Assembly (NCBI GenBank): GCA_965367245.1
Contig: CBDUIC010000003.1
Span: forward strand, 74,622-138,621
Length of the DNA stretch: 64,000 nucleotides
Direction of reading: 5' to 3'
From: an uncultured bacterium
Lineage (GTDB): Bacteria > Myxococcota_A > UBA796 > GCA-2862545
The notes below the pieces were generated by a model, which was not told the DNA's origin, searched no databases, and saw only the letters and a program-made list of their open reading frames with translations. The position numbers and the translations under genes are program-made. This document shows, piece by piece, positions 3,001-32,674 of this stretch. Every line of letters begins with the position of its first letter. Positions within the stretch are counted from its first letter, which is position 1.

Positions 3001-3071
3001 ACGAACACGGCCATGGCCGCAATGAACACCGTGGTGCTGTGATCGACCAGCCAGCGGATGACGGAACGCAT
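1..3071 (-). CDS. RND (HAE1/AcrB-like) efflux transporter permease. Partial: the 3' end runs past the window start.
   Basis: The reverse translation begins MRSVIRWLVDHSTTVFIAAMAVFVFGVLAWVTLPRESSPDITIPVVIVSTPYVGVSPADVE. This family-typical sequence then continues for more than 1000 aa. It includes the C-terminal AcrB-like TM region that reaches position 1. The ATG (reverse complement) lies at 3069-3071, 5 nt after the stop of the adaptor gene. The ORF track shows no Met-to-stop ORF here because no stop falls inside the window. Confidence 0.9.
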   Translation of the reverse strand, partial: MRSVIRWLVDHSTTVFIAAMAVFVFGVLAWVTLPRESSPDITIPVVIVSTPYVGVSPADVENLVSVPIENELASLRGIEKLTSTSAEGVSIVAVEFEPESNIEDALQRVRDRVSRARPKLPTDVEDSSVREISFSDIPVVLINIAGSVDEEHLKKLAEDLEEDLTRVDGVLDVKLTGGKEREVQVHVIPERLAHYGLSLRDVVGAIGDENVNIPGGNVDLGRGNVLLRVPGEFDDPREIEGVAIKRVGDAPVFVRDVARVVDGFAERETYSRMAGQSSVTLAVTKRAGANILEVASKAKEISAEHAEGWPEGVYFRALGDESKAIEQSVSDLQNNIITALILVVGVIVFFMGVRSSLFVAISIPLSMFGAMLVLQSLGFTLNMVVLFALILALGMLVDNAIVVVENVYRHAEMGKDPREASIDGTAEVAVAVAASTATTVAAFFPLVFWTGIMGEFMGFMPKTIIIVLTMSLFVAVGVLPVVMSKLMPKMAVREGADAVDPKLREAPLGRVMGAYRSLLKASIRWRYASAALGVVLFIVTFAIYVPLNHGTEFFPESEPDRAVIGLRLPEGTTVESTDRVVRELEAMLATEPNVDTWVAESGVSAGGDALSGTSTRPSEARITVDFLPSANNAEPGDTIRKENTKLTVDRLRGVAQQLPGARITVEPAGMGPPVGDPIKVEVSGDDYDQVGLFAQKLRRQMAQVPGTTDLRDDYVVGRPELRLRIDRGAATRVGVSTSAVGDAVRTAIAGAVATSLRDGEEEIDVVVELAPEYREDVQMVLDLRLPGREDTSPQTFPVPISTVASYELVGGSGSIQHIDQDLVVTIVGDVLDGFNENEVRAAVAELMEEVERPPGIALELTGANQEQEESMIFLLRAFAIAVCLILLVLVTQFDSLAMPFIILATVILSLVGVLWGLLLTGTPFGIIMTGLGVISLAGVVVNNAIVLLDYVQQLLARGLSTTDALVEAGLTRFRPVMLTAVTTTLGLVPMAIGIAYDFLKFKLIVGSASAQWWGPMAVAVIFG

Positions 3072-3075
3072 GTGC

Positions 3076-4161
3076 CTAGTCCTCGAAGGTGGGGCGGCCT
3101 GCCGTGCAGCAGCGGCCTTCACGGGACACGATCAACGGGTCGCCGTCGACCAGATCGCGGTGCCCGGTGATCACGACGCGGTCGCCTCGGGACAGCCCCT
3201 CGGTGACCACGACCTTGTCGTGGATGACATCCCCGAGGGTCACGTCGCGCCAGGTGGCCACATCGCCACTGGTGACGAACACCCCGCGGCGCTCTCGCTG
3301 CGTGACCAGCCAGTCTTGTGGGATGACCATCACCGACTCGGCGAGGTCGCGTTCGGCACGCACCCGAGCGATCATCCCCGGCAGCAGCGCCCCGTTGGGA
3401 TTGGGGACCTCGACTTCGACCGGAAACGCGCGGGTGCGTGGGTCGGCCGCTGGCGAGACCCGCTGCACCGCGCCCTCCAGCCGCTGCGAGTTGGCCGCCG
3501 TGGTCACCGACACCGGCATGCCCACCGCCAAGCTGACCACGTCGCGATCCGACACCGACAGGGTGACCACCGCGGGGTCGAGCTGGATCAGCCGCGCGAC
3601 CGGTGAGCCCGGCGAGGCCACTTCGCCCTCCTCCACCATCACGGTGGCTACGACGCCGCTGAACGGTGCGCGGACCACGGCGCGCGACATCCGCGCCGAG
3701 GCGAGGGAGCGGTTCGCCTCCGCGACCCGCAGCTGCGTGCGCGCCTGCGCCAGCTGAGCATCCGAGCCGAGGTCGCCCAGCTTCTCCAGCCGACCCACAT
3801 CGACCTTCGCCTGCTCCAGCTGCGCGTCAGCCTGCTCGAGCTGTGCCGCGTAGATGGCGCTGTCGACGCTCATCAGCGAGTCACCCTTCTTCACCACCTG
3901 GCCCTCGACCACGCGCACACGCTCCACGAAGCCACCGTTGGCGGCGGCGAGGTTGGCGTCGCGCTGGCCGCTGACCTCCCCAGGCAGGTCGAGCTCGAGG
4001 GTGGCAGCGGAAGGTTCCAGCTCGACCACCTCCACCCGCACCGCGCGGGACGGCGGCGGGGTCTTCGCGGCCGCCTGAGCCGACTCGGCATCGGACGCAC
4101 CGCACCCCCACAGCAGGGACATCAACAGCGACACCATCATGCGGACACTCCGTGCAGCCAT
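3076..4161 (-). CDS. RND efflux periplasmic adaptor (membrane fusion protein, HlyD/AcrA family)
   Basis: 361-aa ORF. It has a signal-peptide/lipobox-like N-terminus (LLMSLLWGCGAS), coiled-coil segments (AQLEQADAQLEQAKVD) and beta-barrel/lipoyl-like segments typical of this family. It sits immediately upstream of the RND pump on the same strand. Confidence 0.85.
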   Translation of the reverse strand: MAARSVRMMVSLLMSLLWGCGASDAESAQAAAKTPPPSRAVRVEVVELEPSAATLELDLPGEVSGQRDANLAAANGGFVERVRVVEGQVVKKGDSLMSVDSAIYAAQLEQADAQLEQAKVDVGRLEKLGDLGSDAQLAQARTQLRVAEANRSLASARMSRAVVRAPFSGVVATVMVEEGEVASPGSPVARLIQLDPAVVTLSVSDRDVVSLAVGMPVSVTTAANSQRLEGAVQRVSPAADPRTRAFPVEVEVPNPNGALLPGMIARVRAERDLAESVMVIPQDWLVTQRERRGVFVTSGDVATWRDVTLGDVIHDKVVVTEGLSRGDRVVITGHRDLVDGDPLIVSREGRCCTAGRPTFED

Positions 4162-15237: not shown

Positions 15238-18183
15238 TCAATGCACCCGCCGACCGTCGTGGTACCAGGCCCCGGCCGGCATCCGCAGCTTGGCGCTCAC
15301 CCACCAGGCGCGCCAGGCACGCAGGTGGTGCTGCTGCACGCGCCACGGGCCATCGGCGTCGAAGGGCAGGTCGTGGCCGGTCGTGATCACCAGCTCGTCG
15401 TAGCTGGTGCGCCGCACCCACGGGTCGTGGTGCGCCATCTTGTCGATGAGCAGGCCGGCATCGAACACCCTTCCGTCGCGGTGCCGTACACCCTCGGGGT
15501 AGCGACCGGCCTCTTCTTCCCACCACTGGTGCCAGCGGCTGCGCACCCCGGGCTGCTCGATGTCGTCGACGCGACCCGACAGGATCTGCAGCGCCCCCGA
15601 GGCGACCTCCATGACCCGACGGCTACGCGAGTGCAGTGCCTCGAGGAGGGTGGGGACTCCGCGGGCGTCGCCCAGCAGGCCCAAGCCCTGCAGCGCCCCC
15701 AGAGCCTGCTCGCTCTCGCCCTTCGCAGCGCGCACGAGGAGGAGCAGGTGGTCGGGCCCGCCGTAGCGCCCGACGATCTCGCCCGGGTGCCCCGACAGGT
15801 CGGTGCGCTCCTGCATCAGGGCGCGCCCGTGGAAGTCGACGCCACGCCGGTCACCCAGCATCAACAGGGCCAGCGCAGCGACCTCGGCGAGCTTCACCTC
15901 GTCGAGACAGGGCACCAGACCATCGACCGCACGGCGGTCGCCGATGCGACCCAGGGCGATGACCGCAGCCCGGCGGCGAACGGGTGAGCCCCCGCTAGCG
16001 AGCTTCAGCAGCGCCCCCACCGCGCAGCGCTCCCGACGAAGGCCCAGCAGCTCGGCGGCCGCAGCCACCGCCTGGCTCGGCACCGAGCGGGGGTCTTCCA
16101 CACAGCGGAGCAGCCCGTCGACCAGCGCGGCGTTCGGCGACCGGGCGATGGCCCCCTGCAGGGCGCGAAGGGGCACCCCGTCGACCCGCTGCAGCAGCAG
16201 GTGGTCGAGGAGGACCCTGGCCGCCTCGTAGCTACGGTGGCCCGAGAGCAGGTCGACCGCCGCCACGTACTGCAGCACCGGCGGATCGGTGGCCCGACCA
16301 CGCCCCAGGATGGCCCGCGCCGAGCGCTCCATCTGCTGCGACAAGGCGCGCACCACCCCATCGTCGCAGGCCGCGATGGCCAGGCGATGGGCGCCCAGGC
16401 GACGCTCCGGGCGATCGGCATCGCACCGCTCCAAGGGAGGCCGGGCCCGCTGCGCGTCGTGTCGCGCTCGGGCCTGTGCCGTCGAGCGCTCCAGGTGCCA
16501 GGCCAGGCTCGCTCCAGGGTCGCCGGTCAGCGAGTCGAGGGCGGCGACCCCGGCCGACAGGTCGGCCGCGACGAAGCGCTCCCTCGCCATCTGGACCAGC
16601 CGCAGGTCGAGGCCATCGTCGCACGCCCGAAGCCGCGCCAGCCGCAGCAGGCCCCAGGCCTCTCGGACCGGCAGCTCGGCCGCGCCGAAGCCCCGCACCG
16701 CGGTCGCACAGGCCTCCTCCGCTCCCGCCACATCACGACGCTGCAGCAGCACGTCGGCCCGGCGCAGGTGGAGGCGATCGCGCGCCTCGGGGGCCCGGTC
16801 ACCCACCCGCTTCAGCCCCTCGTCGTAGGCAGCGGCGGCGGCGTCGAGGTTCCCCTTGAGGCGCTCTACGTCACCGGCCGCCAGGCACACCAGGCCCTCC
16901 AGCTCGACGCGCCCCAGCCGACGCGCCTTGCGCGGCAGCCCTTCGAGGTGGGCCTCGGCCTCGGTCACCCGCTGACCGCGCACCGCACGCTCGACCCTCA
17001 GCAGCCCCAGCCGGAGCTGCTCCTCGGCACCCAGCTCGCAGGCGGCCGCCTCGGCGAAGATGTCTTCTGCCCAGGGCTCCTGCCGCGTGGTCGCCACCTC
17101 GGCCAGCAGCACCAGCGCCTTGCCCCGTGCCTCCGGCGGGCCATCTCGTCGGGCGCGCCGCAGCAGCGCCTCCGCCTCATCGTGGTGGCCGAGGCCGACC
17201 TCGACCCGCACCAGCTCCAGCAGCGCATCCCAAGGCGTGTGCCGGTAGGTGGCCGAGCGGCAGGTCGCCAGCAGGGACTGCAGCGCGAGGCGCGCGTCGG
17301 TACGCCGCCCACGGGCCACCAGGCTCAGCGCCAGCTGCCGCGACACGGCGACCACCAGCTGGGCCCCCTCTTCGCCGTGGATGTCTCCCACCCGCTCGTC
17401 GAGGAAGCGCTGCAGCTCACGCTCCCAGGCCTCCGCGTCGTGCAGGGTGCGCCCCAGGCTCCGCACCACCTCGGGCGCGATGCACGGAGCGCCCGGGTAG
17501 GGGCCGGGCAGCGCGCAGCGCCGGAAGGCCTCCATCCACGCCTTGCGTGCTGCGCCGCGGTCGCGAACCGCCACCGCGTCGCCCAGGTACTGCCACGCCT
17601 CGACGTGGTCGGCGTCGAGCTGGGTGGCCCGCTGTAGGAAGGTCTCGGCGAGCTCTGGCTGCCCACGCTCCAGCGCACGACGCCCCGCGGCCGTCAGCTG
17701 AAAGGCATCGTCGGGGTCGGCCTCGTGCCGAAGCTCCAGCATGTCGTCGGGGGCGGCGACCCGCGTCTCGATGACCGCGATGCCTCCAGCCAGCCACCCC
17801 GCGAAGCCACGATGCAGCGGCTCGAGGGTATCGCCGTTCCACACGCCGAACACCGCCCCGCGGGTGTCACGGGTGAAGGCCCAGCGGCTGCCGTCGTTGC
17901 TGTCGGCGAACAGCACGACCTGCGGTGCATGACCGCTGGCAGCGCTCATCTCCGAGGAGCTGCGCAGCCTCAGGGCTCCCCGAAACAGCGACGCGCCGTT
18001 GTGCTCGAGCAAGAAGCGCCGAAGCCCCAGGGGCAGGCGCATCTGCAGGTGCGCCTCCAGGGCGGTGAGCGCCTCGGCCGTCGCCCCGGGGGCGAGACGA
18101 TGCACATCACGCCGGTACTTGGCGACGACGCGAGCAAGGGGCGCAGGAACAGCCGACGGCTGCGAGGGGATCGAAGCTTCCAT
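15238..18183 (-). CDS. large multidomain protein: N-terminal SMI1/KNR4 (SUKH-type) domain, central TPR repeats, C-terminal HEAT/PBS-lyase-like repeats
   Basis: 981 aa. The N-terminus LTALEAHLQMRLPLGLRRFLLEHNGASLF resembles SMI1/KNR4. Helical TPR-like repeats occupy the middle. C-terminal repeats RRRAAVIALGRIGDRRAVDGLVPCLDE are HEAT/PBS-lyase-like. Confidence 0.7.
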   Translation of the reverse strand: MEASIPSQPSAVPAPLARVVAKYRRDVHRLAPGATAEALTALEAHLQMRLPLGLRRFLLEHNGASLFRGALRLRSSSEMSAASGHAPQVVLFADSNDGSRWAFTRDTRGAVFGVWNGDTLEPLHRGFAGWLAGGIAVIETRVAAPDDMLELRHEADPDDAFQLTAAGRRALERGQPELAETFLQRATQLDADHVEAWQYLGDAVAVRDRGAARKAWMEAFRRCALPGPYPGAPCIAPEVVRSLGRTLHDAEAWERELQRFLDERVGDIHGEEGAQLVVAVSRQLALSLVARGRRTDARLALQSLLATCRSATYRHTPWDALLELVRVEVGLGHHDEAEALLRRARRDGPPEARGKALVLLAEVATTRQEPWAEDIFAEAAACELGAEEQLRLGLLRVERAVRGQRVTEAEAHLEGLPRKARRLGRVELEGLVCLAAGDVERLKGNLDAAAAAYDEGLKRVGDRAPEARDRLHLRRADVLLQRRDVAGAEEACATAVRGFGAAELPVREAWGLLRLARLRACDDGLDLRLVQMARERFVAADLSAGVAALDSLTGDPGASLAWHLERSTAQARARHDAQRARPPLERCDADRPERRLGAHRLAIAACDDGVVRALSQQMERSARAILGRGRATDPPVLQYVAAVDLLSGHRSYEAARVLLDHLLLQRVDGVPLRALQGAIARSPNAALVDGLLRCVEDPRSVPSQAVAAAAELLGLRRERCAVGALLKLASGGSPVRRRAAVIALGRIGDRRAVDGLVPCLDEVKLAEVAALALLMLGDRRGVDFHGRALMQERTDLSGHPGEIVGRYGGPDHLLLLVRAAKGESEQALGALQGLGLLGDARGVPTLLEALHSRSRRVMEVASGALQILSGRVDDIEQPGVRSRWHQWWEEEAGRYPEGVRHRDGRVFDAGLLIDKMAHHDPWVRRTSYDELVITTGHDLPFDADGPWRVQQHHLRAWRAWWVSAKLRMPAGAWYHDGRRVH

Positions 18184-18382: not shown

Positions 18383-19462
18383 ATGCACGCGGATCGACAA
18401 CAGGCTAATGCGCCGCATGATGTGGAGGTGCAGATGAACGCCGACGAACGCAGGGCAGGAGCGGCGCTGATTCGCCAATCCAAGCCGTTCTCGGAAGAGC
18501 AGGCCTCCACCACGTGGCGCCTGTGGGCGACCACCGTGGCCGTGTGGGCTGCCTCCCTCACCGTCGCCCTGTTCTCCCCGTGGTGGCCGGTGCAGCTGCT
18601 CGGCAGCCTCGTGTGCGGTCTGACCAACGTGCGCATGTTCATCTTCTTCCACGACTGGAAGCACGGTGCGGTGTTCCGCGACAGCCCCCTCGGCGCCGCG
18701 ATGATGAACGTCTACGGGTGGTACACCCTCGTGCCGCCGCCCGTCTGGAAGGAGACCCACGACTACCACCACCGCAACAACGCGCGGATGCTCGGGGCGT
18801 CGATCGGCTCCTACCCGGTCGTGACGACCTCGATGTGGCGGATGATGACGCCCACCCAGCGTCGCTGGTATCGGTTCGCCCGCAATCCCCTCACCATCCT
18901 GTTCGGCTACTTCACGCTGTTCATCGGCGGCATGTGCACCGCGGCCTTCGTTCGCGCGCCGCGTGAGAACTGGCAGGGCCCCGCCGCCCTCGCCGTGCAC
19001 TTCGCGTTCATGGGCCTGGTGGGCTGGCTCCTCGGGCCCTTCGCCGCCTTCGCAGGCGTGCTCCTCCCGGCGTTCATCTCGTGCGCGCTGGGCGCCTACC
19101 TGTTCTACGCCCAGCACAACTTCCCCGGCATCGAGCTTCGCGACCGCCGCTCGTGGACCTACCACCACGCGGCGCTCCGCTGCTCCAGCATGTTCGACAT
19201 GCCGGCTGTGATGCACTGGTTCACCGGCAACATCGGCTACCACCACGTGCACCACCTCAACCACAAGATCCCGTTCTACCGTCTCCCCGAGACCATGGCG
19301 GCGATGCCCGAGCTGCAGAACCCCCACCGCACGTCGTGGCGCCCCTCCGACGTGGCGGCCTGCCTCCGTCTCAAGCTGTGGGACTCTGCTTCTGAGCGCC
19401 TCATCGGGTGGAGCGAGCTCGAGCAGCTCCAGTCGGAGCAGAAGGCGGCAGCGGCCAAGTAG
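18383..19462 (+). CDS. fatty acid desaturase (membrane, di-iron, histidine-box)
   Basis: Three histidine boxes are present: HDWKH, HDYHHRNN, and HHVHHLNH. TM segments are hydrophobic. The track ORF starts at 17999 but its first ~128 codons are Arg/Gly-rich and overlap the divergent gene. The Met at 18383 is the most plausible start; the Met at 18434 is an alternative. Confidence 0.85.
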   Translation: MHADRQQANAPHDVEVQMNADERRAGAALIRQSKPFSEEQASTTWRLWATTVAVWAASLTVALFSPWWPVQLLGSLVCGLTNVRMFIFFHDWKHGAVFRDSPLGAAMMNVYGWYTLVPPPVWKETHDYHHRNNARMLGASIGSYPVVTTSMWRMMTPTQRRWYRFARNPLTILFGYFTLFIGGMCTAAFVRAPRENWQGPAALAVHFAFMGLVGWLLGPFAAFAGVLLPAFISCALGAYLFYAQHNFPGIELRDRRSWTYHHAALRCSSMFDMPAVMHWFTGNIGYHHVHHLNHKIPFYRLPETMAAMPELQNPHRTSWRPSDVAACLRLKLWDSASERLIGWSELEQLQSEQKAAAAK

Positions 19463-19530
19463 CGGCAGCGGCCAAGTAGCGGTGGTGGTTGGCTAGCGGT
19501 GGTGGTTGGCTAGCGGTGGTGGTCGAGCAC
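19446..19530. repeat. 17-nt tandem repeat array, five units in two sequence variants, each unit ending in TAG
   Basis: Units: cggcagcggccaagtag, cggcagcggccaagtag, cggtggtggttggctag, cggtggtggttggctag, then cggtggtggtcgagcac. The desaturase stop (19460-19462) and the minus-strand ORF stop (19510-19512) both lie inside units. Confidence 0.8.
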
Positions 19531-19734
19531 GACCACCTCGGCCAGCGCCGCGACCGGCTGCGCCGAGCCCGGGGCCCCCACAGCTCGTGCTACCGCCCCC
19601 GCTCCCCACGACAGGGCGCCACGCGTGGCCCCCAGCTCGTCGGACGACCACGGCAGGGCCACGATGCCCAACCCGGCCACGGCAATGATTCCCCAGCAAG
19701 CGCTCAGTGTCGTGATCATCTCGGTCCAGTCCAT
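19510..19734 (-). CDS. possible small membrane protein (74 aa)
   Basis: The internal Met at 19734 is preceded by a strong SD (GGAGG, 8-nt spacer). Translation: MDWTEMITTLSACWGIIAVAGLGIVALPWSSDELGATRGALSWGAGAVARAVGAPGSAQPVAALAEVVVLDHHR, with one clear TM helix. It is divergent from the WYL regulator. Weak call. Confidence 0.35.
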   Translation of the reverse strand: MDWTEMITTLSACWGIIAVAGLGIVALPWSSDELGATRGALSWGAGAVARAVGAPGSAQPVAALAEVVVLDHHR

Positions 19735-19812
19735 GGTGAAAACCTCCGGGCCGTAGGTCGAACGCTCTGTGAGCAGAGGTGCCTGCCGGCGGGGTGGAGC
19801 AGCGATGAGAGA

Positions 19813-19885
19813 GAGGTTACTGAACTTCCGTTCACCTGTCAACTGTTCAGGGGTGCCTGGCGCCCGCCCCGCTGACAGGTGAAGG
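19813..19885. promoter_or_regulatory. inverted-repeat-rich region in the WYL-gene leader: an 11-bp perfect inverted repeat TTCACCTGTCA(N31)TGACAGGTGAA, with CTGAAC(N19)GTTCAG overlapping it
   Basis: Read directly. It lies 60-130 nt upstream of the WYL regulator start in a locally lower-GC 209-bp intergenic segment. Confidence 0.45.
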
Positions 19886-19943
19886 ATGGCCCGCATGCAG
19901 GCCAGAAAGTGTCCGCCCCCTCCACGCGATCCTCGAGGTCCCG

Positions 19944-20909
19944 GTGAACAAGTCCCAGAAGCTGGTCAAGATGGTCGAGCTGATGACGCGCCGTGGAGGC
20001 GTGCAGGCGTCCGAGCTGTGCGACCGCTTCGACCTCGATGCGCGTAGCCTCCGCCGCTACCTCGCCGACCTGCGTGAGCTCGATCTGCCGCTGCACGACG
20101 AGGGGCGCGGTGACGATCGCCTGATCAGTCTCGACGCGCGCTGGCGGCGCACAGGCGTGCAGCTGTCCCTCGCCGAGGTGCTGTCGCTGCACTTCGGTCG
20201 CAAGCTGTTCAACTTCCTCGAGGGCACGCAGTTCACTGACGACCTCGATGGAGCGATCGAGCGGCTCGAGCCCGCGATCTCCCGTGCCCATCGCAACCTC
20301 ACGCGCCACCTCGACACCAAGTTCCTGGCGGTCCCCGAGCCCGCGAAAGACTACCGGCTCGCCAGCGACGTGCTCGACGACGTCGTCACCGCACTCGTCT
20401 ACAACAACCCGCTGGAGGCCCGCTACCGGAAGGCCAGCGGCGTCGAGAGCCAGAAGCTGCTCCACCCCTACACCCTCGCCACGTTCCGGCAGGGGCTCTA
20501 CCTGTTCGCCAAAGATGTGGAGGCCAACCTGGTGAAGACCTACGCCGTCGAGCGCTTCGTCGCCGTCGCGCGGCGGCGCGAGAGCTTTCCCGCGCCCCAC
20601 GGATGGCGGCCCGAGGCCCACATCGCTCACGCCTTCGGCATCATCAGCGGCCCTCCCGAGCACGTGGCCATCGCCTTCGCCGAGCGGGTGATCTCCTACG
20701 TGCGCGAGCGCACGTGGCACCCCACCCAGACGTTCGGCACGCTGCCCGACGGCCGGCTCGAGCTGCGGATGAGCGTCGCCACCACCGTCGAGCTGCAGAC
20801 ATGGGTGCAGGGCTTCGGAGCCGACGCCGAGGTGCTTCAACCCGAGGAGTTCCGAGGTCGCGTCGCCTCGTCGCTCCGTCGCGCCGCCACGCAATACCCG
20901 TCCGCATGA
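19944..20909 (+). CDS. WYL-domain transcriptional regulator (N-terminal HTH, WYL and C-terminal WCX-like region)
   Basis: GTG start. HTH-like N-terminus (VQASELCDRFDLDARSLRRYLADLRELDLPL). WYL-domain signature HPYTLATFRQGLYLFAKDVEANLVKTYAVERF. 321 aa. Its stop TGA (20907-20909) overlaps the next ATG (20906-20908). Confidence 0.8.
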   Translation: MNKSQKLVKMVELMTRRGGVQASELCDRFDLDARSLRRYLADLRELDLPLHDEGRGDDRLISLDARWRRTGVQLSLAEVLSLHFGRKLFNFLEGTQFTDDLDGAIERLEPAISRAHRNLTRHLDTKFLAVPEPAKDYRLASDVLDDVVTALVYNNPLEARYRKASGVESQKLLHPYTLATFRQGLYLFAKDVEANLVKTYAVERFVAVARRRESFPAPHGWRPEAHIAHAFGIISGPPEHVAIAFAERVISYVRERTWHPTQTFGTLPDGRLELRMSVATTVELQTWVQGFGADAEVLQPEEFRGRVASSLRRAATQYPSA

Positions 20910-21820
20910 CCCGCCCGCCCGAGCGGCCCGTGAGCCGAGAGCCGTGGCCAGGCCCGACCGATGATCGCGCCCCCTTCGACGAGCCGCCGCACTTCGACAT
21001 CGACGAGGCGTGGCGCAACTACGTCGCCGCCGGTGGGCTCCTCGACCGGGTCGCTCACGATGAGGCGGTGGCGGCCTGCCGCGTCGCGCTCCGCCAGGCC
21101 TGGGCCACCGGAGAGGTGGCCCCCGTCGAGCCCTGGCTGGGTCCCCTGCTGCTGGGCGCGGAGCGGCAGCCCGAGCACCGGCGATTTGCGGCGATCGAGT
21201 CGGTCGCCTCCATCGACACCGTCGTTCGGCTGGCGACCGATCTCGTGCCGGGCCTCGGCAACAGCGCGCCCGACCGGCTGCTGGGCCCGTGGGCCCACGC
21301 CACTAACACCCGATGCCACCCTGCCCTCTTTCGAGCTGCGACAGCCCACGGTGCCTTCCTGGTACCCGACGACCTGCCCCTGTCGGCCTTCCAGCGCTGG
21401 GCCGGTCGCAGCCCGGTGCCGCTGGCAGAGCTCCGCGCGGCCGTGCGGGCCATCGCCCAGGCACCCCTCACCGCGTGGCCCATCCTCTCGGTGGGGGCGA
21501 CGTGGTCGCTAGGCCCCGCGGTCGGCCTGGGCACCTCGGCCCCCGACGTGGCCGTCACGGGTCCCGCGCTACTGCCCGGCGTCGACGTGCCGCAGCCTGG
21601 AGATGTGCTGGTCGGCCGGGTGGTCGCGGCCCCCGGTCAGGCCGTCGCCTTCGCGCCGATCGTGTGCCCTGGGCCTCTCCCCCCATCGTGCGAGGCGTGG
21701 GTCGATCTGCTCACCGTCGAGCACCGCCTCACGGATCGGCGTGGGAGTACCGAAGACGTGCTACGCAGGAACGGACACCTGCTGGTGCAGCGTGTGCTGG
21801 AGGCCGCGTGGCTCCCTTGA
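20906..21820 (+). CDS. hypothetical protein (304 aa) coupled to the WYL regulator
   Basis: The ATGA overlaps the upstream stop. Translation begins MTRPPERPVSREPWPGPTDDRAPFDEPPHFDIDEAWRNYVAAGG. Composition is protein-like, but I recognise no family motif. Its 3' end overlaps the start of the downstream methyltransferase. Confidence 0.5.
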   Translation: MTRPPERPVSREPWPGPTDDRAPFDEPPHFDIDEAWRNYVAAGGLLDRVAHDEAVAACRVALRQAWATGEVAPVEPWLGPLLLGAERQPEHRRFAAIESVASIDTVVRLATDLVPGLGNSAPDRLLGPWAHATNTRCHPALFRAATAHGAFLVPDDLPLSAFQRWAGRSPVPLAELRAAVRAIAQAPLTAWPILSVGATWSLGPAVGLGTSAPDVAVTGPALLPGVDVPQPGDVLVGRVVAAPGQAVAFAPIVCPGPLPPSCEAWVDLLTVEHRLTDRRGSTEDVLRRNGHLLVQRVLEAAWLP

Positions 21821-22569
21821 GCGACGACCCCTACCGCGATCCCCACCTGTACGATCTCGAGTACGCCGACCACGACGAAGACATCGCCTACTACAAGGCG
21901 ATGGCGTGGCAGGCGGAGGGCCCCGTGCTCGAGCTCGGCTGTGGCACCGGTCGCCTCACCCTCCCGATGGCCTCCGTGGGCGCCCATGTCACCGGCGTCG
22001 ACCTGTCGGAGGGCATGCTCACCGGGCTTCGCGCACGCCTGGCCGACATGCCATCCGACGTGCGCGGCCGCGTCGAGGTCCTCCAGGGAGACTTCCGAGT
22101 GCTGGCCCTGGGCCGCCGCTTCGCCACCGTGCTGTGGCCCTTCAACGCGCTGCATCACTGCCGCACCGACGAAGAGCTCGACGCAAGCCTCGAGGTGCTC
22201 CTCGCCCACCTCGCTCCAGGCGGCGTCATCGGGCTCGACGCCTACCTACCCGACATCGAGCTGTACGACCGCGACCCCAACGAGCGCTACGAAGAGCGGC
22301 ACCTCATCGACCCTGTCCGCGGCGAGGCCGTGAAGAGCTGGGAGCAGGGCTGGTGGGATGCCCCGACCCGCACGCATCACGTGGTCTACACCTACGCGTC
22401 GGCGAGCGGCACCCGCAAGGCCCACCTGCGGTTCACGATGTGGGAGCTGCCCGAGCTACGCGCGGCCTTCGCCCGCCACGGCCTGCGCGTGCTGCACGAA
22501 GCTGAAGACTTCCGCAGCACGCCCCTCAACGACAGCTCACTCAAATACGTGGCGCAGCTGTCGCGCTGA
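21808..22569 (+). CDS. class I SAM-dependent methyltransferase (small-molecule/protein type, not a DNA MTase)
   Basis: Motif I VLELGCGTGRLT and motif II-like EVLQGDF. It has no DPPY/NPPW-type motifs. The start is a GTG at 21808 or TTG at 21814 (about 35 aa before motif I). The track ORF begins earlier, in an Arg/Pro-rich stretch that overlaps the preceding gene. Confidence 0.75.
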   Translation: MAPLSDDPYRDPHLYDLEYADHDEDIAYYKAMAWQAEGPVLELGCGTGRLTLPMASVGAHVTGVDLSEGMLTGLRARLADMPSDVRGRVEVLQGDFRVLALGRRFATVLWPFNALHHCRTDEELDASLEVLLAHLAPGGVIGLDAYLPDIELYDRDPNERYEERHLIDPVRGEAVKSWEQGWWDAPTRTHHVVYTYASASGTRKAHLRFTMWELPELRAAFARHGLRVLHEAEDFRSTPLNDSSLKYVAQLSR

Positions 22570-22575
22570 CCGAGC

Positions 22576-24105
22576 TCAGTAGGCGCAGTAGGTAACGCCC
22601 GACTCCTCGCGCTTCTCGGCGCGGAGGTCTTGCGGAGCCCACTTGTCGGACTTGATCTCGGGGATCGTGAACTGACCCTTCAGGTAGACGCGGGTGGTGG
22701 AGTCTTCCCCATCGAGGACGAGGGTGAACGCGCCCTCGGCACTGCCGCCGATACGGAGATCGGAGTTCTCGGAGAACACGACGTAGCTGTAGTTCAGCTC
22801 GCCCCAGCCGTCGTAGCCCGACTCGGTGCCGTCGAGGGCACGCCACTCGTTCATGTGGGTGATGGGCCGGTAGGCGAAGACATCATCGTCTTCGTCAGCA
22901 CGGGCACTGCCCTCGAACTCGATGCGAGCCTGGTCGGCCACACGAGCAATCCGCTCCTCCAGAACGGCCAGGCAATCCGAGTCTTCGTTCAGGTCGCCCG
23001 CATCTTGCTCACACCACCACAGGTAGTCGGCCGTGAAGGCATCACCGAGGCCACCCGCGAGGTCGTCTTCCGACAGGCCGAGGCGCTGGAACAGATCGCC
23101 AAGCTCGGGCTCGGCGTAGGTCGGCGGGCGATGCGAGATGCGCTCTTCGCCGAAGAAGCCCTGGGCAGCCCCTGCAGACCACTGCTCGGGCGTGTACCAC
23201 CAGTCGCTGTTCTCTTCGGGGTTGAACTGGTAGCCGTTGGCGTTGAGGAAGAACAGACGGCCGCCGTCGAGGTAGGGCTCGAGGTGCGCGTAGGGCGCAA
23301 AGGCCTCGTCGTCGCCCTCCAGCGCGGCGATGCGGTCGAGCTCGGTGGACCACTCGTCGATCCAGTCGCCATCGAGGGCCGAGGCCACCACGTCGCCGTT
23401 GTCTTGCACCACGCACTCGGTGGGCTGGAAGAAGCGGTCGACCGCGAACTGGAACCGGATGTCGGCGCCACCTGGCATCGAGTGGTGGAAGCCCACCAGC
23501 AGGTCGCCTTCGTGGGTGACGATGCCCTCGCCCCGCCAGGGGTCGAGCTCGCCGGAGACCACGTGGAAGCCGTCGCGGGACAGCCACGGCTCCTGAATGG
23601 GAGGCCAGAAGCCGTCGCCGTTGTCGTCGCAGTTGGAGGGAGGCAGGTAGAACTCTGCGACCTCGCCGCTCGGCAGCGTGACGACCTCGGTGCCTGCAGC
23701 GCCCACGTTGGGGTCGCTGTCGTCACAGTCGTAGTAGTCGGTGATGCCGTCGTCGTCGTCGTCGAGGTCGGCGATGTCGAGGACAGGGTCGCCGTCGTAC
23801 TCTTCGCGGTTGCCGTCGGTGTCGCGGAAGAAGTGCGCCTCGTCGTCGCCCTCGTCGCCCCAGCCGCAGACGGCCTCCCGATCCTCCAGACGCTGCACCT
23901 CACCGGCCTGCTCATCGACGAAGAATCGGCAGTCGATCTGGTGATAGGTCGCGAAGTTGTCGAGCTTGAGCTGCTCTTTGCGGAGCGTGACCGAGTTGGA
24001 GTCGGCCACGAAGGCAATGAACTCGCCGCTGATCAGCTCGGCGCTCTGCGGGGCGCAGGCGCCAGCGAGCAATGCGGTGACGACGAGAATCTGGGAGGTG
24101 CGCAT
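22576..24105 (-). CDS. hypothetical acidic lipoprotein
   Basis: MRTSQILVVTALLAGACAPQ (lipobox LAGAC). 509 aa, strongly acidic with Asp-rich stretches (DLDDDDDGITDYYDCDDSD). No family recognised. Confidence 0.6.
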   Translation of the reverse strand: MRTSQILVVTALLAGACAPQSAELISGEFIAFVADSNSVTLRKEQLKLDNFATYHQIDCRFFVDEQAGEVQRLEDREAVCGWGDEGDDEAHFFRDTDGNREEYDGDPVLDIADLDDDDDGITDYYDCDDSDPNVGAAGTEVVTLPSGEVAEFYLPPSNCDDNGDGFWPPIQEPWLSRDGFHVVSGELDPWRGEGIVTHEGDLLVGFHHSMPGGADIRFQFAVDRFFQPTECVVQDNGDVVASALDGDWIDEWSTELDRIAALEGDDEAFAPYAHLEPYLDGGRLFFLNANGYQFNPEENSDWWYTPEQWSAGAAQGFFGEERISHRPPTYAEPELGDLFQRLGLSEDDLAGGLGDAFTADYLWWCEQDAGDLNEDSDCLAVLEERIARVADQARIEFEGSARADEDDDVFAYRPITHMNEWRALDGTESGYDGWGELNYSYVVFSENSDLRIGGSAEGAFTLVLDGEDSTTRVYLKGQFTIPEIKSDKWAPQDLRAEKREESGVTYCAY

Positions 24106-24270
24106 GCGGTCCTCGAGCGGGAAGCCAGTGAGCGGACCTTATAGGCGACCCGCAAGGGGGTGGTCAACCCGATCTGACAAGGTTGTCGGTGAGGCAGGAC
24201 AAATGGCGGTGACCCCGCCTTGCACGATGTGAGTGCAACGTCGCGGTTGGTCGTTAACCCACGCCGCGGT

Positions 24271-26646
24271 TCATCGGGCTCCGGTGTCAGCGGTGCTCCC
24301 GGTGCCGGCGGCCGTTCCTACGCCTGTATCCGCGGTCGGCCCGGTCGCCGTGGTGGGGGTGGAGGTGGACCCCTCGGGAGGGTCGGGCACGAGGAAGCGC
24401 AGCGACCCAGAGTCGGTGTCGATGCCGGCGAAGTCGGGCACACCGTCGCGATCGCCGTCGAAGACCAGCACCCCACCCTCCCAGGCGATGGGGTTGTGCC
24501 ACAGCTGCGGAGGCGACACCGCCACCCCGAGGTCACGGTACAGACCGATCACACCCGAAGCGGCGTCGTGGGTCACGAGCTCGGTGACGCCGTCGAGGTC
24601 GATGTCGGCGAAGGTGAGGGTGTCGGCACGACCACCGATCACCGCGAAGGTTCCGTCGGGCGCCACCGAGCGCACGCCGCTGTCTTCCGCCACGATGTAC
24701 CGCGTCACGCCGTCGCCCAGGCGCCACGGAGCGATGGCGCAGCCGGGCGAGCCACACACCTTCACCTCGGGGCCAGCACCGACATCACCGAAGGTGAGCC
24801 CGTAGGCGCCCGCTGCAGTGGTCCGCGACAGCTCACCGAGGGTCGGCCCCAGGAGCAAGACGGTCTCCCCGTCGAGCACGCCCACCGCGGCGCCGGCAGG
24901 ACCCACACCGCAGGTCACCCCACGAGGCTGTGCGATGGGCAGCGTGGCCGACACGATCGGGAAGGTGCGGTCGGACAGGTCGATCGACACCAACGCACTG
25001 TCGAGGAGTGCATAGGCTCGACGGTCGCAGACCACCAGGTCGCGGGGGCTCCCACCGTCGTCGAGGAACGCGTAGCCCACCCGTTCGGAGCGGTCTCCGC
25101 CGACGTCTTCGAGGACCAGGAACTGCAGGCGCCCCGCGTCTTCGTGGAAGGCCAGGAACTCTTCGGTCGCTGGGTCGCCGTCGAGGGTCACGTGCCGCGC
25201 GGGGGGAACCAGCGCCTCACGAAGGAAGGACTCCGAGGGCTTCCGCGGCTCCCAGAAGCGCGTCTCGTCGCCGCGGAACACCCGACCGCGGGTCCATGAC
25301 CAGACGCCCTCGCTGGCGAGGAAGAAGTCGTTGGCGCCGTCTTCGTCGATGTCGTCCACGGCGATGGGGCCGAGATCTTGAAGGTCGGACAGCAGGTTCA
25401 TCCGCGGATAGGTCGCGGTCGCCCCCCGGCCCTGGTTCGACAGCGCCTGAAGCTGCCCGGTCTCCTGAAGGAGCCAGAGGTCGTCGATGAGGTCGCCATC
25501 GCCATCCCCTGCCGCGACATAGGCGGCCTGCTCGTTGTCGAACGACAGGATCAGGATGCCGTCGTCGATGTCGAACAGGTGCACCTGCCGGAGCTGACCG
25601 GGGGTTCGTGGCCCCACCACATGGATCTCATCGGCGCCATCGCCGTCGAGGTCGATGGCGGGCCCCATGGAAGCGCCCGGGGGAAGCAGCACGTTGAGGG
25701 GCGTGTCGGGACCGATGGGCATGTAGCGGGAGGGCGCCCCCTCGATGAACCGCCGCCACGTGCCGTTCGCGAGCAGCACCGTGCCCTGTTGCCGCCCCTC
25801 TGCCGTGTTGTCGCCCACCGCTACGTCGATGGGGATTCCGCCGAGCAGCCGAGGCTCGGCGGCGATGAACCCGAACAGCCCATCCCCGTTCCACACATCG
25901 AAGACGCCGCCGTCGTCACCGCCTGCCCAGGCGATCGCGACATCGGGGAGGTTGTCGCCCGACAGGTCGCCGATGTCGGCTCCGCCCACCGTGTAGCCGG
26001 GGGCCGTGAAGCCTCCTCCCCACGACATCCCGCCGCCATTGCGGCCCCGTAGCAGGAACACGGTCTTCGAGGTCCACGCGATGGCGTCGTCAAACCCGTC
26101 GACGTCGACCTCTCCGGCGCGCAAGCCCAGCACGGGCTCCGACAAGCTCAGCACCTTGTGGGGGCGCAGGCCCTCGTGGTCGACCCACCACACGTCGTTG
26201 CCGTCGATGGCCAGCGCACCGGTGGTGACCCCCACGACCTCTTCCACACCGGCGAGGGGCGCTGCGGCTGACGGCACCAGGCCCGGTGGCTCGTACCAGC
26301 TGGCCAAGCCGTTCATCTGCACCAGGGAGGACCCCGCGCTCACCTCGGTCACGCCTACGGAGTCGATGGTCACGCCGCCGTAGCCGACGCCATCGAACGA
26401 CACCAGGGACGGCACGTCGCCGACCGAGACCGACTGAGGATTGGACGCGACCGCAGCGCCGTACTGGTTGACGGCTCGCACCCAGCCTACCAGCGGCACC
26501 GGCCCCGTAGAGGGCACCGCCTCTACCTGGACCGCCGCCGCGTCGCTGAGCACCTGCGCCGGCGTCACCGAGGGCACCCGCTCTCGGGCGTCGCAGGCGG
26601 CCGAACCAGCAGCCAGGATCACGCTCAGCACTGCGCTCCGACGCAT
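24271..26646 (-). CDS. FG-GAP/VCBS-repeat beta-propeller lipoprotein
   Basis: N-terminus MRRSAVLSVILAAGSAACD (lipobox). It carries repeated FG-GAP-like motifs (GDLSGDNLPDVAIAW, IDLDGDGADEIHVVG, VDDIDEDGANDFFLAS, ADIDLDGVTELV, FDGDRDGVPDFAGI) and a Thr/Gly-rich C-terminal tail. Confidence 0.7.
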   Translation of the reverse strand: MRRSAVLSVILAAGSAACDARERVPSVTPAQVLSDAAAVQVEAVPSTGPVPLVGWVRAVNQYGAAVASNPQSVSVGDVPSLVSFDGVGYGGVTIDSVGVTEVSAGSSLVQMNGLASWYEPPGLVPSAAAPLAGVEEVVGVTTGALAIDGNDVWWVDHEGLRPHKVLSLSEPVLGLRAGEVDVDGFDDAIAWTSKTVFLLRGRNGGGMSWGGGFTAPGYTVGGADIGDLSGDNLPDVAIAWAGGDDGGVFDVWNGDGLFGFIAAEPRLLGGIPIDVAVGDNTAEGRQQGTVLLANGTWRRFIEGAPSRYMPIGPDTPLNVLLPPGASMGPAIDLDGDGADEIHVVGPRTPGQLRQVHLFDIDDGILILSFDNEQAAYVAAGDGDGDLIDDLWLLQETGQLQALSNQGRGATATYPRMNLLSDLQDLGPIAVDDIDEDGANDFFLASEGVWSWTRGRVFRGDETRFWEPRKPSESFLREALVPPARHVTLDGDPATEEFLAFHEDAGRLQFLVLEDVGGDRSERVGYAFLDDGGSPRDLVVCDRRAYALLDSALVSIDLSDRTFPIVSATLPIAQPRGVTCGVGPAGAAVGVLDGETVLLLGPTLGELSRTTAAGAYGLTFGDVGAGPEVKVCGSPGCAIAPWRLGDGVTRYIVAEDSGVRSVAPDGTFAVIGGRADTLTFADIDLDGVTELVTHDAASGVIGLYRDLGVAVSPPQLWHNPIAWEGGVLVFDGDRDGVPDFAGIDTDSGSLRFLVPDPPEGSTSTPTTATGPTADTGVGTAAGTGSTADTGAR

Positions 26647-26666
26647 GCATCCTCCGTCAGCGAACC

Positions 26667-28205
26667 CTAGCACGGCCCGCCACGCCATCGCGCCCCCTCA
26701 CGTGGGTCGAGCCGACGAAGCGTGCGTCGACGCCACCACAGCCCCGGGAGCAGCACCATCAACAGCGGACCGCGCCCGCAGCCCCCGGGGGCAGGATGAC
26801 GCTGCGGGAGGCGTGCCTTGCCAGCACCCCAGCGCGGGTCGGGTGTCAGTGAGGGCTGATCGGACCTCGCCCAGCCCTGCAGACGCGTCGCGGCCTCCCT
26901 CGGCGACAGCGATGGGTCGTCGCTCATCACCAACGCGATCATGCCCGCCACGGCAGGCGTGGACGCCGAGGTCCCGAAAAAGCCCACCGGACCGTACGTG
27001 TCGGTGCTCAGCCCATCGGGGCCGGCGATGTCGGGCCGCGAGACCCCCGCGTGATTCGGCCCCCATGACGAGAAGCCCTCCACCGTGCCCGTGGCGTAGT
27101 CACTGGCCCGCACCGCCCCCACCGCGAAGGCCCTAGGGTGCGCCGCGGGGTCGTTGACCGAGCTGTTCTTCACCATCGGCGCGATCACGCCATCGCGACT
27201 CAGAACGTCGACCGACACCCCCACGGCCGCCCCCGCGCGTGCCGACACCTCCACTCGGTACCACCCCTCCACCGCGACCGTGGCGCGCAGGCGCTCGTAG
27301 GCCTCGCATCCCTCGTCGTCAGGCAGCTGCTCGTCGTCGGCTCGGTCGAGCACCCATCCACGCTCGTCGATGAGCTCTGCGTCGAGGTCGACCTCCCCGC
27401 ACCGGTCCCACCCGTCCCAGTTCACGTAGAGGGTGGCCGACCCCGGTGTCAGGTAGACCCACAGCCCGTTGTCACCGTCGCCATCCATGCGGCCGTCGTG
27501 GTCGACGTCGAGGTAGCGCCCCGCCCAGTGCTGGTCGGCGTTGTTGCCTGCCGACGTGACCAGAAGCACCCCCGCATCATCGAGGCGCTCCACCAGCTCC
27601 GCCTGCGGCCCCGTGCCGTCGTAGTGGGACTGGTTGTAGTACGACAGCGACATGCTGATCACGTCGATGCCCTCGCGGATGGCCCAGTCCACCGCGTTCT
27701 CGTAGGCCGTGACCGAGTTCACCCGCACCAGGTGCAGCTCTGCATCTGGAGCCACGTCTCGGACCACCTCGGCACAGGCCCACCCGTGGGCGCCCGCCTC
27801 GAAGGTCAGCGCAGGTCGTGACAGATCGAAGGGGACCTCGCACGTCGCCGACGCAAAGCAGTCGTGGGTGACCACCGGAGCCGTCTCCACCGGGTCGGTC
27901 TCGCCGACGAACCAGTTGCTGTCGAAGACCGCGACCTTCACGCCCCGCCCCCGGACGCCGTCGGCATGCCATCCGGCCGCTCCGATCGTGCCGAGGGTCT
28001 CCGTCGCCGCGAAGGGCAGCTCCACACGGTCGGTGGACGGCACCACGATGGGCCGCCAGGGCGTACCGTCTCCGGGGGGGCCCTCGAGGATCGACCCGAA
28101 ACGCGAGGTCGCCACGGCCTCGGGGTGATCGGGCACGTCGACCCGCACCAGGTCATCGAGGCCCCACCCTCCGGCCAGCGCCAGCGTCGCCCACCACCAG
28201 GTCAC
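26667..28205 (-). CDS. S8-family (subtilisin-like) serine peptidase, secreted
   Basis: Catalytic-triad context: KVAVFDS (Asp), HGWACAEV (His), and GTSASTPAVAGMIAL (Ser). 512 aa. Confidence 0.85.
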   Translation of the reverse strand: MTWWWATLALAGGWGLDDLVRVDVPDHPEAVATSRFGSILEGPPGDGTPWRPIVVPSTDRVELPFAATETLGTIGAAGWHADGVRGRGVKVAVFDSNWFVGETDPVETAPVVTHDCFASATCEVPFDLSRPALTFEAGAHGWACAEVVRDVAPDAELHLVRVNSVTAYENAVDWAIREGIDVISMSLSYYNQSHYDGTGPQAELVERLDDAGVLLVTSAGNNADQHWAGRYLDVDHDGRMDGDGDNGLWVYLTPGSATLYVNWDGWDRCGEVDLDAELIDERGWVLDRADDEQLPDDEGCEAYERLRATVAVEGWYRVEVSARAGAAVGVSVDVLSRDGVIAPMVKNSSVNDPAAHPRAFAVGAVRASDYATGTVEGFSSWGPNHAGVSRPDIAGPDGLSTDTYGPVGFFGTSASTPAVAGMIALVMSDDPSLSPREAATRLQGWARSDQPSLTPDPRWGAGKARLPQRHPAPGGCGRGPLLMVLLPGLWWRRRTLRRLDPREGARWRGGPC

Positions 28206-31327: not shown

Positions 31328-32674
31328 ATGTCGCTCTGGAACATGCTCAAGCAGCACGCTGGTGCCCAGTTCATGGAGGTCATCGACTGGACCGATGACA
31401 CCAACGACACCATCGTCTTCCGCTACCCGACCTTCAACCAGGCCATCACCGACAACTCCAAGCTGGTGGTGCGCGAGTCGCAGGCCGGGGTGTTCGTCGC
31501 CGAGGGCAAGCTGTCGGAGGTGTTCGGCCCGGGCAGCTACGCACTCGACACGCGCAACGCGCCGATCATGCGGTTCCTGCAGTCGATCGCCTACAAGTTC
31601 GAGGAGCCGTACAAGGGCGACATCTACTTTGTGAACACCAAGCAGTTCACCGACAACAACTGGGGCACCCCGCGCCCCATCACGGTGCGCGACGCCGAGT
31701 TCGGCATGGTGCGGCTGCGCGCCTTCGGCATCTACAGCTTCCGCATCACCGATCCGGCGACCTTCCTGCGCCAGATCGTCGGCACCGACGGCCTGTTCAC
31801 CACCGACGAGATCTCCGGGCAGCTCAAGAAGAAGCTGGTCTCGTCGGCGTCGGCCACCATCGCCAAGAGCCGGATGTCGATCCTCGACCTCGCCACCGCC
31901 TACATGGAGCTCGGTGATCAGCTGCGCGAGGAGATGAACCCCACGTTCCAGGAGTCGTACGGCATCACCATCACCGACTTCACGATCTCCAACATCAGCC
32001 TGCCCGACGAGGTCGAGCAGGCCCTCGACAACCGCTCCAAGATGGGCATCCTCGGCGACCTCAACGCCTACACCCAGCTCAAGTCCGCTGACGCCATCGA
32101 GAAGGCCGCCAGCAACCAGGGCATGGGCGGCATCGGCGTGGGTATGGGCGTGGGGCTGGGCATGGGCAACCAGGTCGGCAACATGATGGGCCGTGCGGCG
32201 CAGGGCAACGGCACGTTCAACCCCCACACCGGCCTGCAGGCACCCGCCGCCGCTGCGCCGCCTCCCCTGCCCGGGCAAGACACCTGGCACTACAACGGCG
32301 CCGCCGGCCAGGGTCAGTTCACCACCGAGCAGATCGTGGGCCACATCCTCGCCAACCGCGACGCCAGCCATCTGGTGTGGAAGGCAGGCTGGCCCGCGTG
32401 GAAGCCCTACACCGAGGTCACCGAGCTCACGTCGCAGCTGCCGCCTCCCGCCGCAGCGCCCCCGCCACTCCCCGGGGCCGAGAAGCTGCACTACAACGGC
32501 CCCGGCGGTCAGGGTGAGCGCACCATCGCCGAGATCGTTGCCGCCGTGAAGTCCGACCCCGACGCCACCCACCACGTGTGGAAGCAGGGCTGGCCCGGCT
32601 GGAAGCCGGCGGCTGAGGTGGAGGCCATCGCCGCCCAGCTGTCGAGTGGTCCTCCCCCCCTGCCCCCGGCGTAG
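31328..32674 (+). CDS. SPFH/band-7 domain protein with two C-terminal DUF4339 (GYF-like) repeats
   Basis: From the Met at 31328: MSLWNMLKQHAGAQFMEVIDWTDDTNDTIVFRYP, with a typical SPFH N-terminal region. It ends in two tandem 45-aa repeats, WHYNGAAGQGQFTTEQIVGHILANRDASHLVWKAGWPAWKPYTEV and LHYNGPGGQGERTIAEIVAAVKSDPDATHHVWKQGWPGWKPAAEV. The upstream part of the track ORF is non-protein-like. Confidence 0.8.
   Translation: MSLWNMLKQHAGAQFMEVIDWTDDTNDTIVFRYPTFNQAITDNSKLVVRESQAGVFVAEGKLSEVFGPGSYALDTRNAPIMRFLQSIAYKFEEPYKGDIYFVNTKQFTDNNWGTPRPITVRDAEFGMVRLRAFGIYSFRITDPATFLRQIVGTDGLFTTDEISGQLKKKLVSSASATIAKSRMSILDLATAYMELGDQLREEMNPTFQESYGITITDFTISNISLPDEVEQALDNRSKMGILGDLNAYTQLKSADAIEKAASNQGMGGIGVGMGVGLGMGNQVGNMMGRAAQGNGTFNPHTGLQAPAAAAPPPLPGQDTWHYNGAAGQGQFTTEQIVGHILANRDASHLVWKAGWPAWKPYTEVTELTSQLPPPAAAPPPLPGAEKLHYNGPGGQGERTIAEIVAAVKSDPDATHHVWKQGWPGWKPAAEVEAIAAQLSSGPPPLPPA

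Follow-up and report, generated by a model that had tools for sequence, protein, structure and literature searches.

WYL-domain regulators are familiar chiefly as switches that sense nucleic acids and govern DNA-damage and phage-defence genes. The neighbouring WYL proteins PafB and PafC form a heterodimeric DNA-damage regulator, and BrxR and CapW are the repressors of BREX and CBASS loci. In Mycobacterium smegmatis, the chromosomal WYL transcription factor SiwR controls adjacent non-defence DinB/YfiT-like genes (PMC10693628). The locus described here lies in a stretch of 64,000 nt from an uncultured bacterium (contig CBDUIC010000003.1), which is called the window below and is taken at its full length wherever window-wide counts are given. 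It consists of three open reading frames (ORFs) arranged head to tail on the + strand, which encode a WYL/WCX regulator, an unrecognised protein termed X, and a class I S-adenosylmethionine (SAM)-dependent methyltransferase (MT).

SiwR is the closest described analogue in kind, being likewise a lineage-restricted chromosomal regulator of the helix-turn-helix (HTH)-WYL type that stands beside non-defence genes and has a promoter-proximal site, although in the present locus both the control and the site are predicted from sequence. As cargo, SiwR has two separately transcribed DinB-like metalloenzymes, and its ligand is single-stranded DNA, whereas the cargo here is a protein of orphan fold and a putative N-methyltransferase, co-translated with the regulator. 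With BrxR and CapW the locus shares the HTH-WYL-WCX architecture, the position of the regulator at the 5′ end of the operon and an upstream inverted-repeat operator (a candidate in this case), but genes of BREX, CBASS or other defence systems are absent here, and the locus is syntenic, apparently vertical and was not found on plasmids or phages. The locus is like PafB-PafC in that two neighbouring genes, the first of them for a WYL protein, are translationally coupled and show strong conservation within a phylum; X, however, is not a WYL paralogue (no HTH, WYL or WCX match in Pfam), and no Pup-proteasome genes occur here.

The regulator gene (19944-20909, + strand) encodes 321 amino acids from a GTG start, and its stop codon TGA (20907-20909) overlaps the start codon of X within the tetranucleotide ATGA (20906-20909), an arrangement proposed in the sequence-only reading of this DNA and confirmed by direct reading. 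The gene for X (20906-21820, + strand; 304 amino acids from ATG 20906) ends with TGA at 21818-21820, inside the MT gene (21808-22569, + strand; 253 amino acids from GTG 21808). Two starts can be considered for the MT, namely GTG at 21808 (13-nt overlap with X, with GGAGG 4 nt upstream) and the alternative TTG at 21817 (TTGA, 4-nt overlap). The earlier proposal of GTG or TTG starts at 21808 or 21814 was correct for the former position, whereas 21814 is a CCC codon and the in-frame TTG lies at 21817; of the overlap of 7-13 nt given with it, the upper value stands and the lower one is replaced by 4 nt. Stop/start overlaps of the same kind recur in related loci, in which the 4-nt overlap between X and the MT is also kept. 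The three genes are one translationally coupled operon, as had been claimed, and the unit is conserved elsewhere. No promoter-like site (sigma-70 consensus) or intrinsic-terminator-like site was detected within 19300-22800, scans of the window against Rfam and for tRNAs gave no matches, and the G+C content is uniform at approximately 70% across the window, equal to the flanks and without a compositional break at the locus.

Related loci (27 in total, L001-L027) were collected and the proteins of the window were mapped onto them; two genome/metagenome scans for related loci gave 2 and 5 loci, respectively. X was located immediately 3′ of a WYL/WCX gene in 27/27 loci, the stop and start codons overlapping in almost every case, and this pairing held at 25-35% identity of X and with unrelated flanks (L023, L025 and L026). 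The MT was present in one subclade and absent in ten of the loci (L013, L014, L018, L019, L021 and L023-L027). Because X follows the WYL gene in all 27 loci while the MT is lineage-specific, the invariant unit is WYL plus X and not the triad. The 'WYL-gated two-gene effector module' of the sequence-only reading therefore does not hold as a fixed unit, the MT being a lineage-specific third gene, and of the suggested co-occurrence of all three genes the WYL-X part was found throughout and the full triad was not. In five MT-less loci the third position is occupied by a small lipoprotein, Y, of 119-157 amino acids (L014, 10606-11049; L023, 9903-10376; L024; L025, 9918-10355; L026, 10005-10364); pairwise identity among the copies is 31-43%, and they have no Pfam match and often overlap the 3′ end of X. 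When the WYL proteins were placed on a rough neighbour-joining tree, the MT-bearing loci formed one clade with MT-less lineages nested inside, which suggests one gain of the MT followed by one or more losses.

The closer loci share a gene order of approximately 15 kb, which comprises a NUDIX gene, a gene for a 981-amino-acid SUKH-TPR-HEAT protein, a fatty-acid desaturase gene in some of them, a small minus-strand ORF, WYL, X, MT, and genes for a lipoprotein, an FG-GAP protein and an S8 peptidase, and the syntenic block is common to relatives down to approximately 30% identity of X. X had no match in collections of 72,556 plasmids and 50,697 phage records, and the patchy, mobile-island distribution expected of WYL-regulated defence systems was not seen among the related loci. 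Because gene order is shared over approximately 15 kb, the locus appears to be chromosomal and vertically inherited and not a mobile island.

The gene for X has G+C contents of 0.80/0.56/0.85 at the first, second and third codon positions, similar to its neighbours, and a ratio of nonsynonymous to synonymous substitution rates (dN/dS) of 0.16 in comparison with the 92%-identical orthologue in L001. In view of the third-position value and this ratio, X is a genuine coding gene under purifying selection, and selection on it is 3-12 times more relaxed than on WYL (0.018), MT (0.055) and the other neighbours (0.013-0.075). The middle protein is thus real and unrecognised, as first described, and the alternative of an unconserved ORF with poor third-position statistics does not apply: an exhaustive profile search returned a family of 206 clusters at E<=1e-3, 154 of them at E<=1e-10. 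A word-indexed homologue search gave 8 matches, to which a repeat with a profile of 52 sequences added no members. All named sources of the family are Myxococcota/"Deltaproteobacteria" metagenome-assembled genomes (MAGs), in which the proteins are labelled 'hypothetical protein'. X had no match in Pfam, NCBIfam, PADLOC or PHROG; 51 of 52 diverse family members likewise had no Pfam match and the remaining one had a spurious match, and the family profile found nothing at E<0.89 among the sequences of solved structures.

An AlphaFold 2 (AF2) model of X, built on the family alignment, was confident (pLDDT 80.7, pTM 0.79) and consists of a disordered tail (residues 1-28), a helical domain (32-184), a small beta-barrel (188-254) and a helical hairpin (261-302). 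The model had no structural relatives apart from a match of approximately 70 residues between the barrel and the cold-shock domain (CSD)/oligonucleotide-binding (OB) type. The barrel of the window protein has an isoelectric point (pI) of 4.05 and a single Arg/Lys residue, the median net charge of the barrel in the family is 0, and the median pI of the whole proteins is 6.5; this acidic or neutral, and not basic, character of the barrel speaks against X as a nucleic-acid-binding OB/CSD protein. Positions conserved in at least 90% of the 52 members are occupied by Gly, Pro, Leu and three Arg only, and neither an invariant acidic, His, Cys or Ser residue among these members nor a nuclease, ATPase, TIR or pore signature in X was found. 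Since the conserved positions are of this kind, X lacks a catalytic signature, and alignment and model together show it as a non-catalytic protein of predicted orphan fold. The disordered tail carries the motif W-P-x(5-8)-D-P-[FYW]-x-[DE], which is kept with or without a downstream MT. The idea that X is a degenerate WYL paralogue was rejected, the hhalign probability of X against the WYL profile being 0.1% and no Pfam domain being found in the 52 members.

The MT matched Methyltransf_25 in Pfam at 1.4e-18 (67.8 bits, cut-off 27) and also Methyltransf_12, Methyltransf_11 and Methyltransf_23, and its glycine-rich motif I reads LELGCGTGR, with a GCGTG loop; by these marks it is a class I SAM-dependent MT. 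Neither the DNA-MT motif IV ([DNS]PP[YFW]) nor PCQ is present in its 253 residues, and the former description of it as a small-molecule or protein enzyme and not a DNA MT was upheld, in the form of a small-molecule or peptide type. Its top NCBIfam match was the MT of daptides, which are peptides synthesised on ribosomes and modified after translation (RiPPs) (NF041820, 106.9 bits, cut-off 175); this assignment was rejected on account of the score and of the missing daptide biosynthetic context. The nearest relatives of solved structure are CorZ (9SOT, 1.4e-29), MtfA (3G2M), CcbJ, DesVI, YunM, TylM1, CypM and CalS10, and the top 14 PDB sequence matches are all peptide or amino-sugar N-methyltransferases or close homologues of these. 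CorZ, with which the alignment spans the N-terminal segment and the Rossmann core, is the N-terminal MT of the myxobacterial biarylitide myxarylin (PMC12951456). The MT of the window resembles CorZ/BytZ (biarylitide), MtfA (glycopeptide), CypM (cypemycin), the daptide MT and TylM1/DesVI in its class I Rossmann fold, an N-terminal segment of the YDxxY type and a motif of the PFNALHH type, and differs from these natural-product enzymes in scoring below the curated cut-offs, in lying outside a biosynthetic cluster and in being paired with X or, in relatives, fused to it. The protein thus falls, as far as its sequence tells, in the amine N-methyltransferase clade, and because its nearest characterised relatives are amine N-methyltransferases, it is predicted to N-methylate an amine. 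None of CorZ/BytZ, MtfA, CypM, the daptide MT and TylM1/DesVI is known to be partnered with X. The MT family comprised 561 matches at E<=1e-20, mostly of approximately 254 amino acids, whose named sources were Myxococcota/Myxococcales MAGs; the SAM-binding region also partially matched mad2 of PADLOC (8e-19).

A physical connection between X and the MT is suggested by gene fusions. Two X-family representatives (560 and 571 amino acids) consist of an N-terminal X and a C-terminal MT, and when the proteins gathered in the analysis were scanned with both profiles, at least five divergent fusion clusters were obtained (P0010; P0015, P0156 and P0157; P0262, P0323 and P0324; P0275; P0288), with members from different samples and several independent contigs. 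The MT portion of P0010 shares 51% identity with the window MT along its entire length, and the clusters are 48-53% identical to each other, as distant as from the unfused window MT. The linker comprises 3-6 residues between '...EWAW' of X and 'DDPY..LYDLEY' of the MT. An AF2 model of the fusion P0015 had a pLDDT of 89.8 and a pTM of 0.76 over 560 residues, which suggests that the two halves are fixed relative to each other. No fusion between WYL and X was found among the best 150 of the 206 X-family members.

The regulator contains the domains WYL (PF13280; 5e-10, 39.7 bits, cut-off 21.8) and WCX (PF25583; 3.6e-16, 59.7 bits, cut-off 23.9), an architecture identical in all orthologues, and its N-terminus was matched weakly by HTH_11 and HTH_PafC (0.002, below the cut-offs). 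The WYL profiles of PADLOC matched it at 1e-22 to 4e-25, and no sequence of a solved structure matched at E<=1e-3. Within the unit, conservation is highest for WYL, with 64-99% identity in the MT-bearing clade and 45-55% beyond, and its dN/dS against the L001 orthologue indicates strong purifying selection.

Upstream of the regulator, a candidate composite operator of 31 nt (19820-19850) has the form CTGAAC-N4-GTTCACCTGTCAA-N2-GTTCAG, with three GTTCA-type half-sites, in a region shared with a divergent small ORF (19510-19734, - strand; 74 amino acids with an N-terminal transmembrane-like helix). It occurs once in the window and was not found in 100 shuffles, and it is near-invariant in 11 aligned upstream regions, including those of loci in which X is approximately 30% identical and synonymous sites are saturated; this site is presumed to bind the WYL regulator. 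No further copies that would mark a regulon were found in the window, and some loci carry an extra GTTCAC..GTTCAG repeat in the upstream region. The only other palindrome of the type TGAAC-N(2-8)-GTTCA in the window is TGAACACCAAGCAGTTCA at 31632-31649, which lacks the remaining operator parts. The left arm of a perfect 11-nt inverted repeat (19831-19883; TTCACCTGTCA-N31-TGACAGGTGAA, the TGACAGGTGAA arm at 19873-19883) lies inside the candidate operator, and neither arm has another copy in the window. The exact motif was found in 12/22 loci and paired in 8, the pairing being seen in close relatives of the window. The inverted repeats noticed upstream at the outset proved to be real and conserved 5′ of the regulator. 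An element conserved in the upstream alignment, AAAGTGTCCGC (AAAnTGTCCGC; 19906-19916, + strand), is located approximately 30 nt 5′ of the WYL start, has an invariant TGTCC core and may be a promoter or leader element; it has one copy in the window, though so short a pattern is by itself not above chance.

The 74-amino-acid ORF is conserved at 40-96% identity in relatives by tblastn and had no match in Pfam or PHROG, and most related loci, including MT-less ones, carry a minus-strand ORF of 68-90 amino acids at its position.

Taken together, these data lead us to favour, tentatively, the reading that an autoregulated WYL-X core in a vertically inherited Myxococcota operon has recruited an N-methyltransferase that acts in complex with X. 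According to this reading, the WYL regulator would bind the GTTCA-type operator (19820-19850) in the divergent promoter and thereby control its own operon, and probably also the small membrane-protein gene on the - strand, with switching brought about by binding of a ligand to the WYL domain. X would act by binding a partner or ligand. In the subclade of the window the amine-type N-methyltransferase has been added as a third coupled gene, and in several relatives it is fused to the C-terminus of X; X and the MT would form one complex in which X is the targeting or regulatory subunit, and the MT would N-methylate an amine of a peptide, protein or small molecule bound to X. Other lineages have the same WYL-X core, followed either by the gene of a small lipoprotein or by no third gene.

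Several observations weigh against this reading. X persists without the MT in 10/27 loci, and its primary role therefore cannot be that of an MT subunit. All closer loci are extensively syntenic, so that adjacency alone is weak evidence in that clade. The 3-12-fold faster evolution of X relative to its neighbours would fit a conflict-related role as well, and the MT does not reach the cut-off of any curated equivalog. The pTM of the fusion model bears only indirectly on binding between X and the MT, and a single indel error at the 4-nt overlap could create an apparent fusion in a metagenome assembly; such an artefact is possible in individual cases, and is unlikely as a general explanation because five divergent clusters were found on multiple contigs.

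The main rival of the favoured reading, which we regard as unlikely, is that X serves the WYL factor as a co-regulator or sensor subunit in a PafB-PafC-like hetero-complex, delivering or mimicking the ligand, for example through its conserved acidic-aromatic N-terminal tail, and that the third gene is a lineage add-on that modifies X or the signal. PafB and PafC are encoded by adjacent partner genes, and in the present family the stop/start adjacency of WYL and X, which suggests 1:1 co-translation, is invariant whatever the third gene; the N-terminal WP..DP[FYW] motif is likewise independent of the MT, and X bears no enzymatic signature. On the other hand, X has no detectable WYL paralogy (hhalign 0.1%), the 150 best members include no WYL-X fusion in contrast to the recurrent X-MT fusions, and fast divergence of X beside a highly conserved WYL would be unusual for a tight obligate complex. 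At the opposite extreme, the triad might be mere conserved synteny within one clade, with the MT functionally unlinked to X or WYL. The common gene order of approximately 15 kb in all closer loci and the missing MT in 10/27 loci agree with this, but X-MT fusions in five divergent clusters, the conserved 4-nt overlap and the modelling of a fusion as a single body (pTM 0.76) make it hardly credible.

A defence function deserves attention, since WYL regulators control BREX, CBASS and CRISPR loci; X, with or without the MT, would then be an effector of an anti-phage or stress module released by the WYL regulator upon infection or DNA damage. The matches of the regulator to the WYL and Cas3c-N-terminal profiles of PADLOC, the partial match of the MT to mad2 (8e-19) and the position of X as the fastest-evolving gene of the neighbourhood are in line with such a module. 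X itself, however, matched neither PADLOC nor PHROG and is devoid of signatures of a nuclease, ATPase, TIR or pore protein as well as of invariant acidic, His, Cys or Ser residues, and its dN/dS of 0.16 reflects relaxed and not positive selection. Nor do the surroundings agree: the WYL gene is under strong purifying selection and apparently vertical, G+C is the same as in the flanks, X is not in the 72,556 plasmids or 50,697 phage records, the locus belongs to a conserved block of the chromosome, its neighbours are of the housekeeping type, and no other defence genes occur within approximately 8 kb. No known defence genes were recognised in the operon or its neighbourhood; of the two genes behind the regulator, X had no PADLOC match and the MT only the partial one to mad2, and the neighbours are desaturase, SUKH-TPR-HEAT, NUDIX, FG-GAP and S8 peptidase genes. 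We consider this explanation quite improbable, and the defence connotation given to the locus at first was not sustained, given the stable synteny, the lack of mobile copies and of a PADLOC match for X, and the missing effector signature. The kinship of the MT with the RiPP and natural-product N-methyltransferases CorZ, CypM, MtfA and the daptide MT, together with the conserved small ORF that adjoins the operon, could also point to a minimal RiPP-like or natural-product pathway, in which a small peptide, such as the product of the divergent 74-amino-acid ORF, is recognised by X and N-methylated by the MT. This is very improbable in our view: that product is membrane-protein-like, with an N-terminal transmembrane helix, and its ORF is kept in MT-less loci such as L013 and L024; further genes for tailoring, proteases or export are missing; the daptide MT model gave 107, short of its cut-off of 175; X does not resemble a RiPP recognition element and has no Pfam match; and the module is apparently vertical and lineage-wide, unlike typical biosynthetic gene clusters.

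The surroundings of the operon provided several further observations. Two adjoining 17-nt tandem arrays at 19445-19523 (GCGGCAGCGGCCAAGTA, 2.2 copies; TAGCGGTGGTGGTTGGC, 2.8 copies; both 100% match) extend over the stop codon (19462) of the gene for the fatty-acid desaturase and the 3′ end of the 74-amino-acid ORF. The 981-amino-acid protein encoded at 15238-18183 (- strand) carries TPR and HEAT repeats behind an N-terminal SMI1/KNR4 (SUKH) domain, and its gene, with the NUDIX gene behind it, stays beside WYL-X down to 46% identity (L027). Downstream, the cluster of secreted proteins on the opposite strand, described as adjacent in the sequence-only reading, was recovered at 22576-28205 (- strand) as a syntenic group encoding an acidic lipoprotein of 509 amino acids without a family match, an FG-GAP protein of 805 amino acids and an S8 peptidase; a peptidyl-arginine deiminase (PAD) gene comes after the group in L001 and L005. 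One or two genes past X, three loci that otherwise differ carry a gene for an RluA-type pseudouridine synthase on the opposite strand (L025, 10469-11305; L026, 11294-12337; L027, 10748-11686), and the distant locus L023 contains at 1-3503, approximately 5 kb upstream of WYL-X, an eCIS_core (extracellular contractile injection system) gene for more than 1,900 amino acids. The MAGs of L013 and L014 are publicly labelled as uncultured Enterobacteriaceae/Enterobacterales, and their WYL and X proteins are 45-68% identical to the Myxococcota-type proteins of the window; judged from these sequences, the labels are probably wrong.

A more far-reaching proposal, which we consider doubtful, is that X represents a new class of obligate partner of WYL factors, a non-enzymatic co-sensor or adaptor of orphan fold that would pass on to the WYL switch the state of a peptide or metabolite which it binds and which the recruited or fused MT N-methylates, making a relay of protein and ligand in place of single-stranded nucleic acid. 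If X does relay a signal to the switch, the interest of the locus would be higher. Under the favoured reading of a WYL-X core with a recruited N-methyltransferase, the operon may contain a two-subunit N-methyltransferase with a dedicated targeting subunit, and would represent a WYL regulon that belongs neither to defence nor to the classical DNA-damage response. Practical value will be modest until a substrate or phenotype is known; the locus nevertheless offers a testable handle on the X family of approximately 206 clusters. Across a phylum-level lineage, a WYL regulator is locked to an unannotated protein family without structural relatives, and what is new here is this partner family, hitherto unannotated, within the known theme of WYL-regulated operons.

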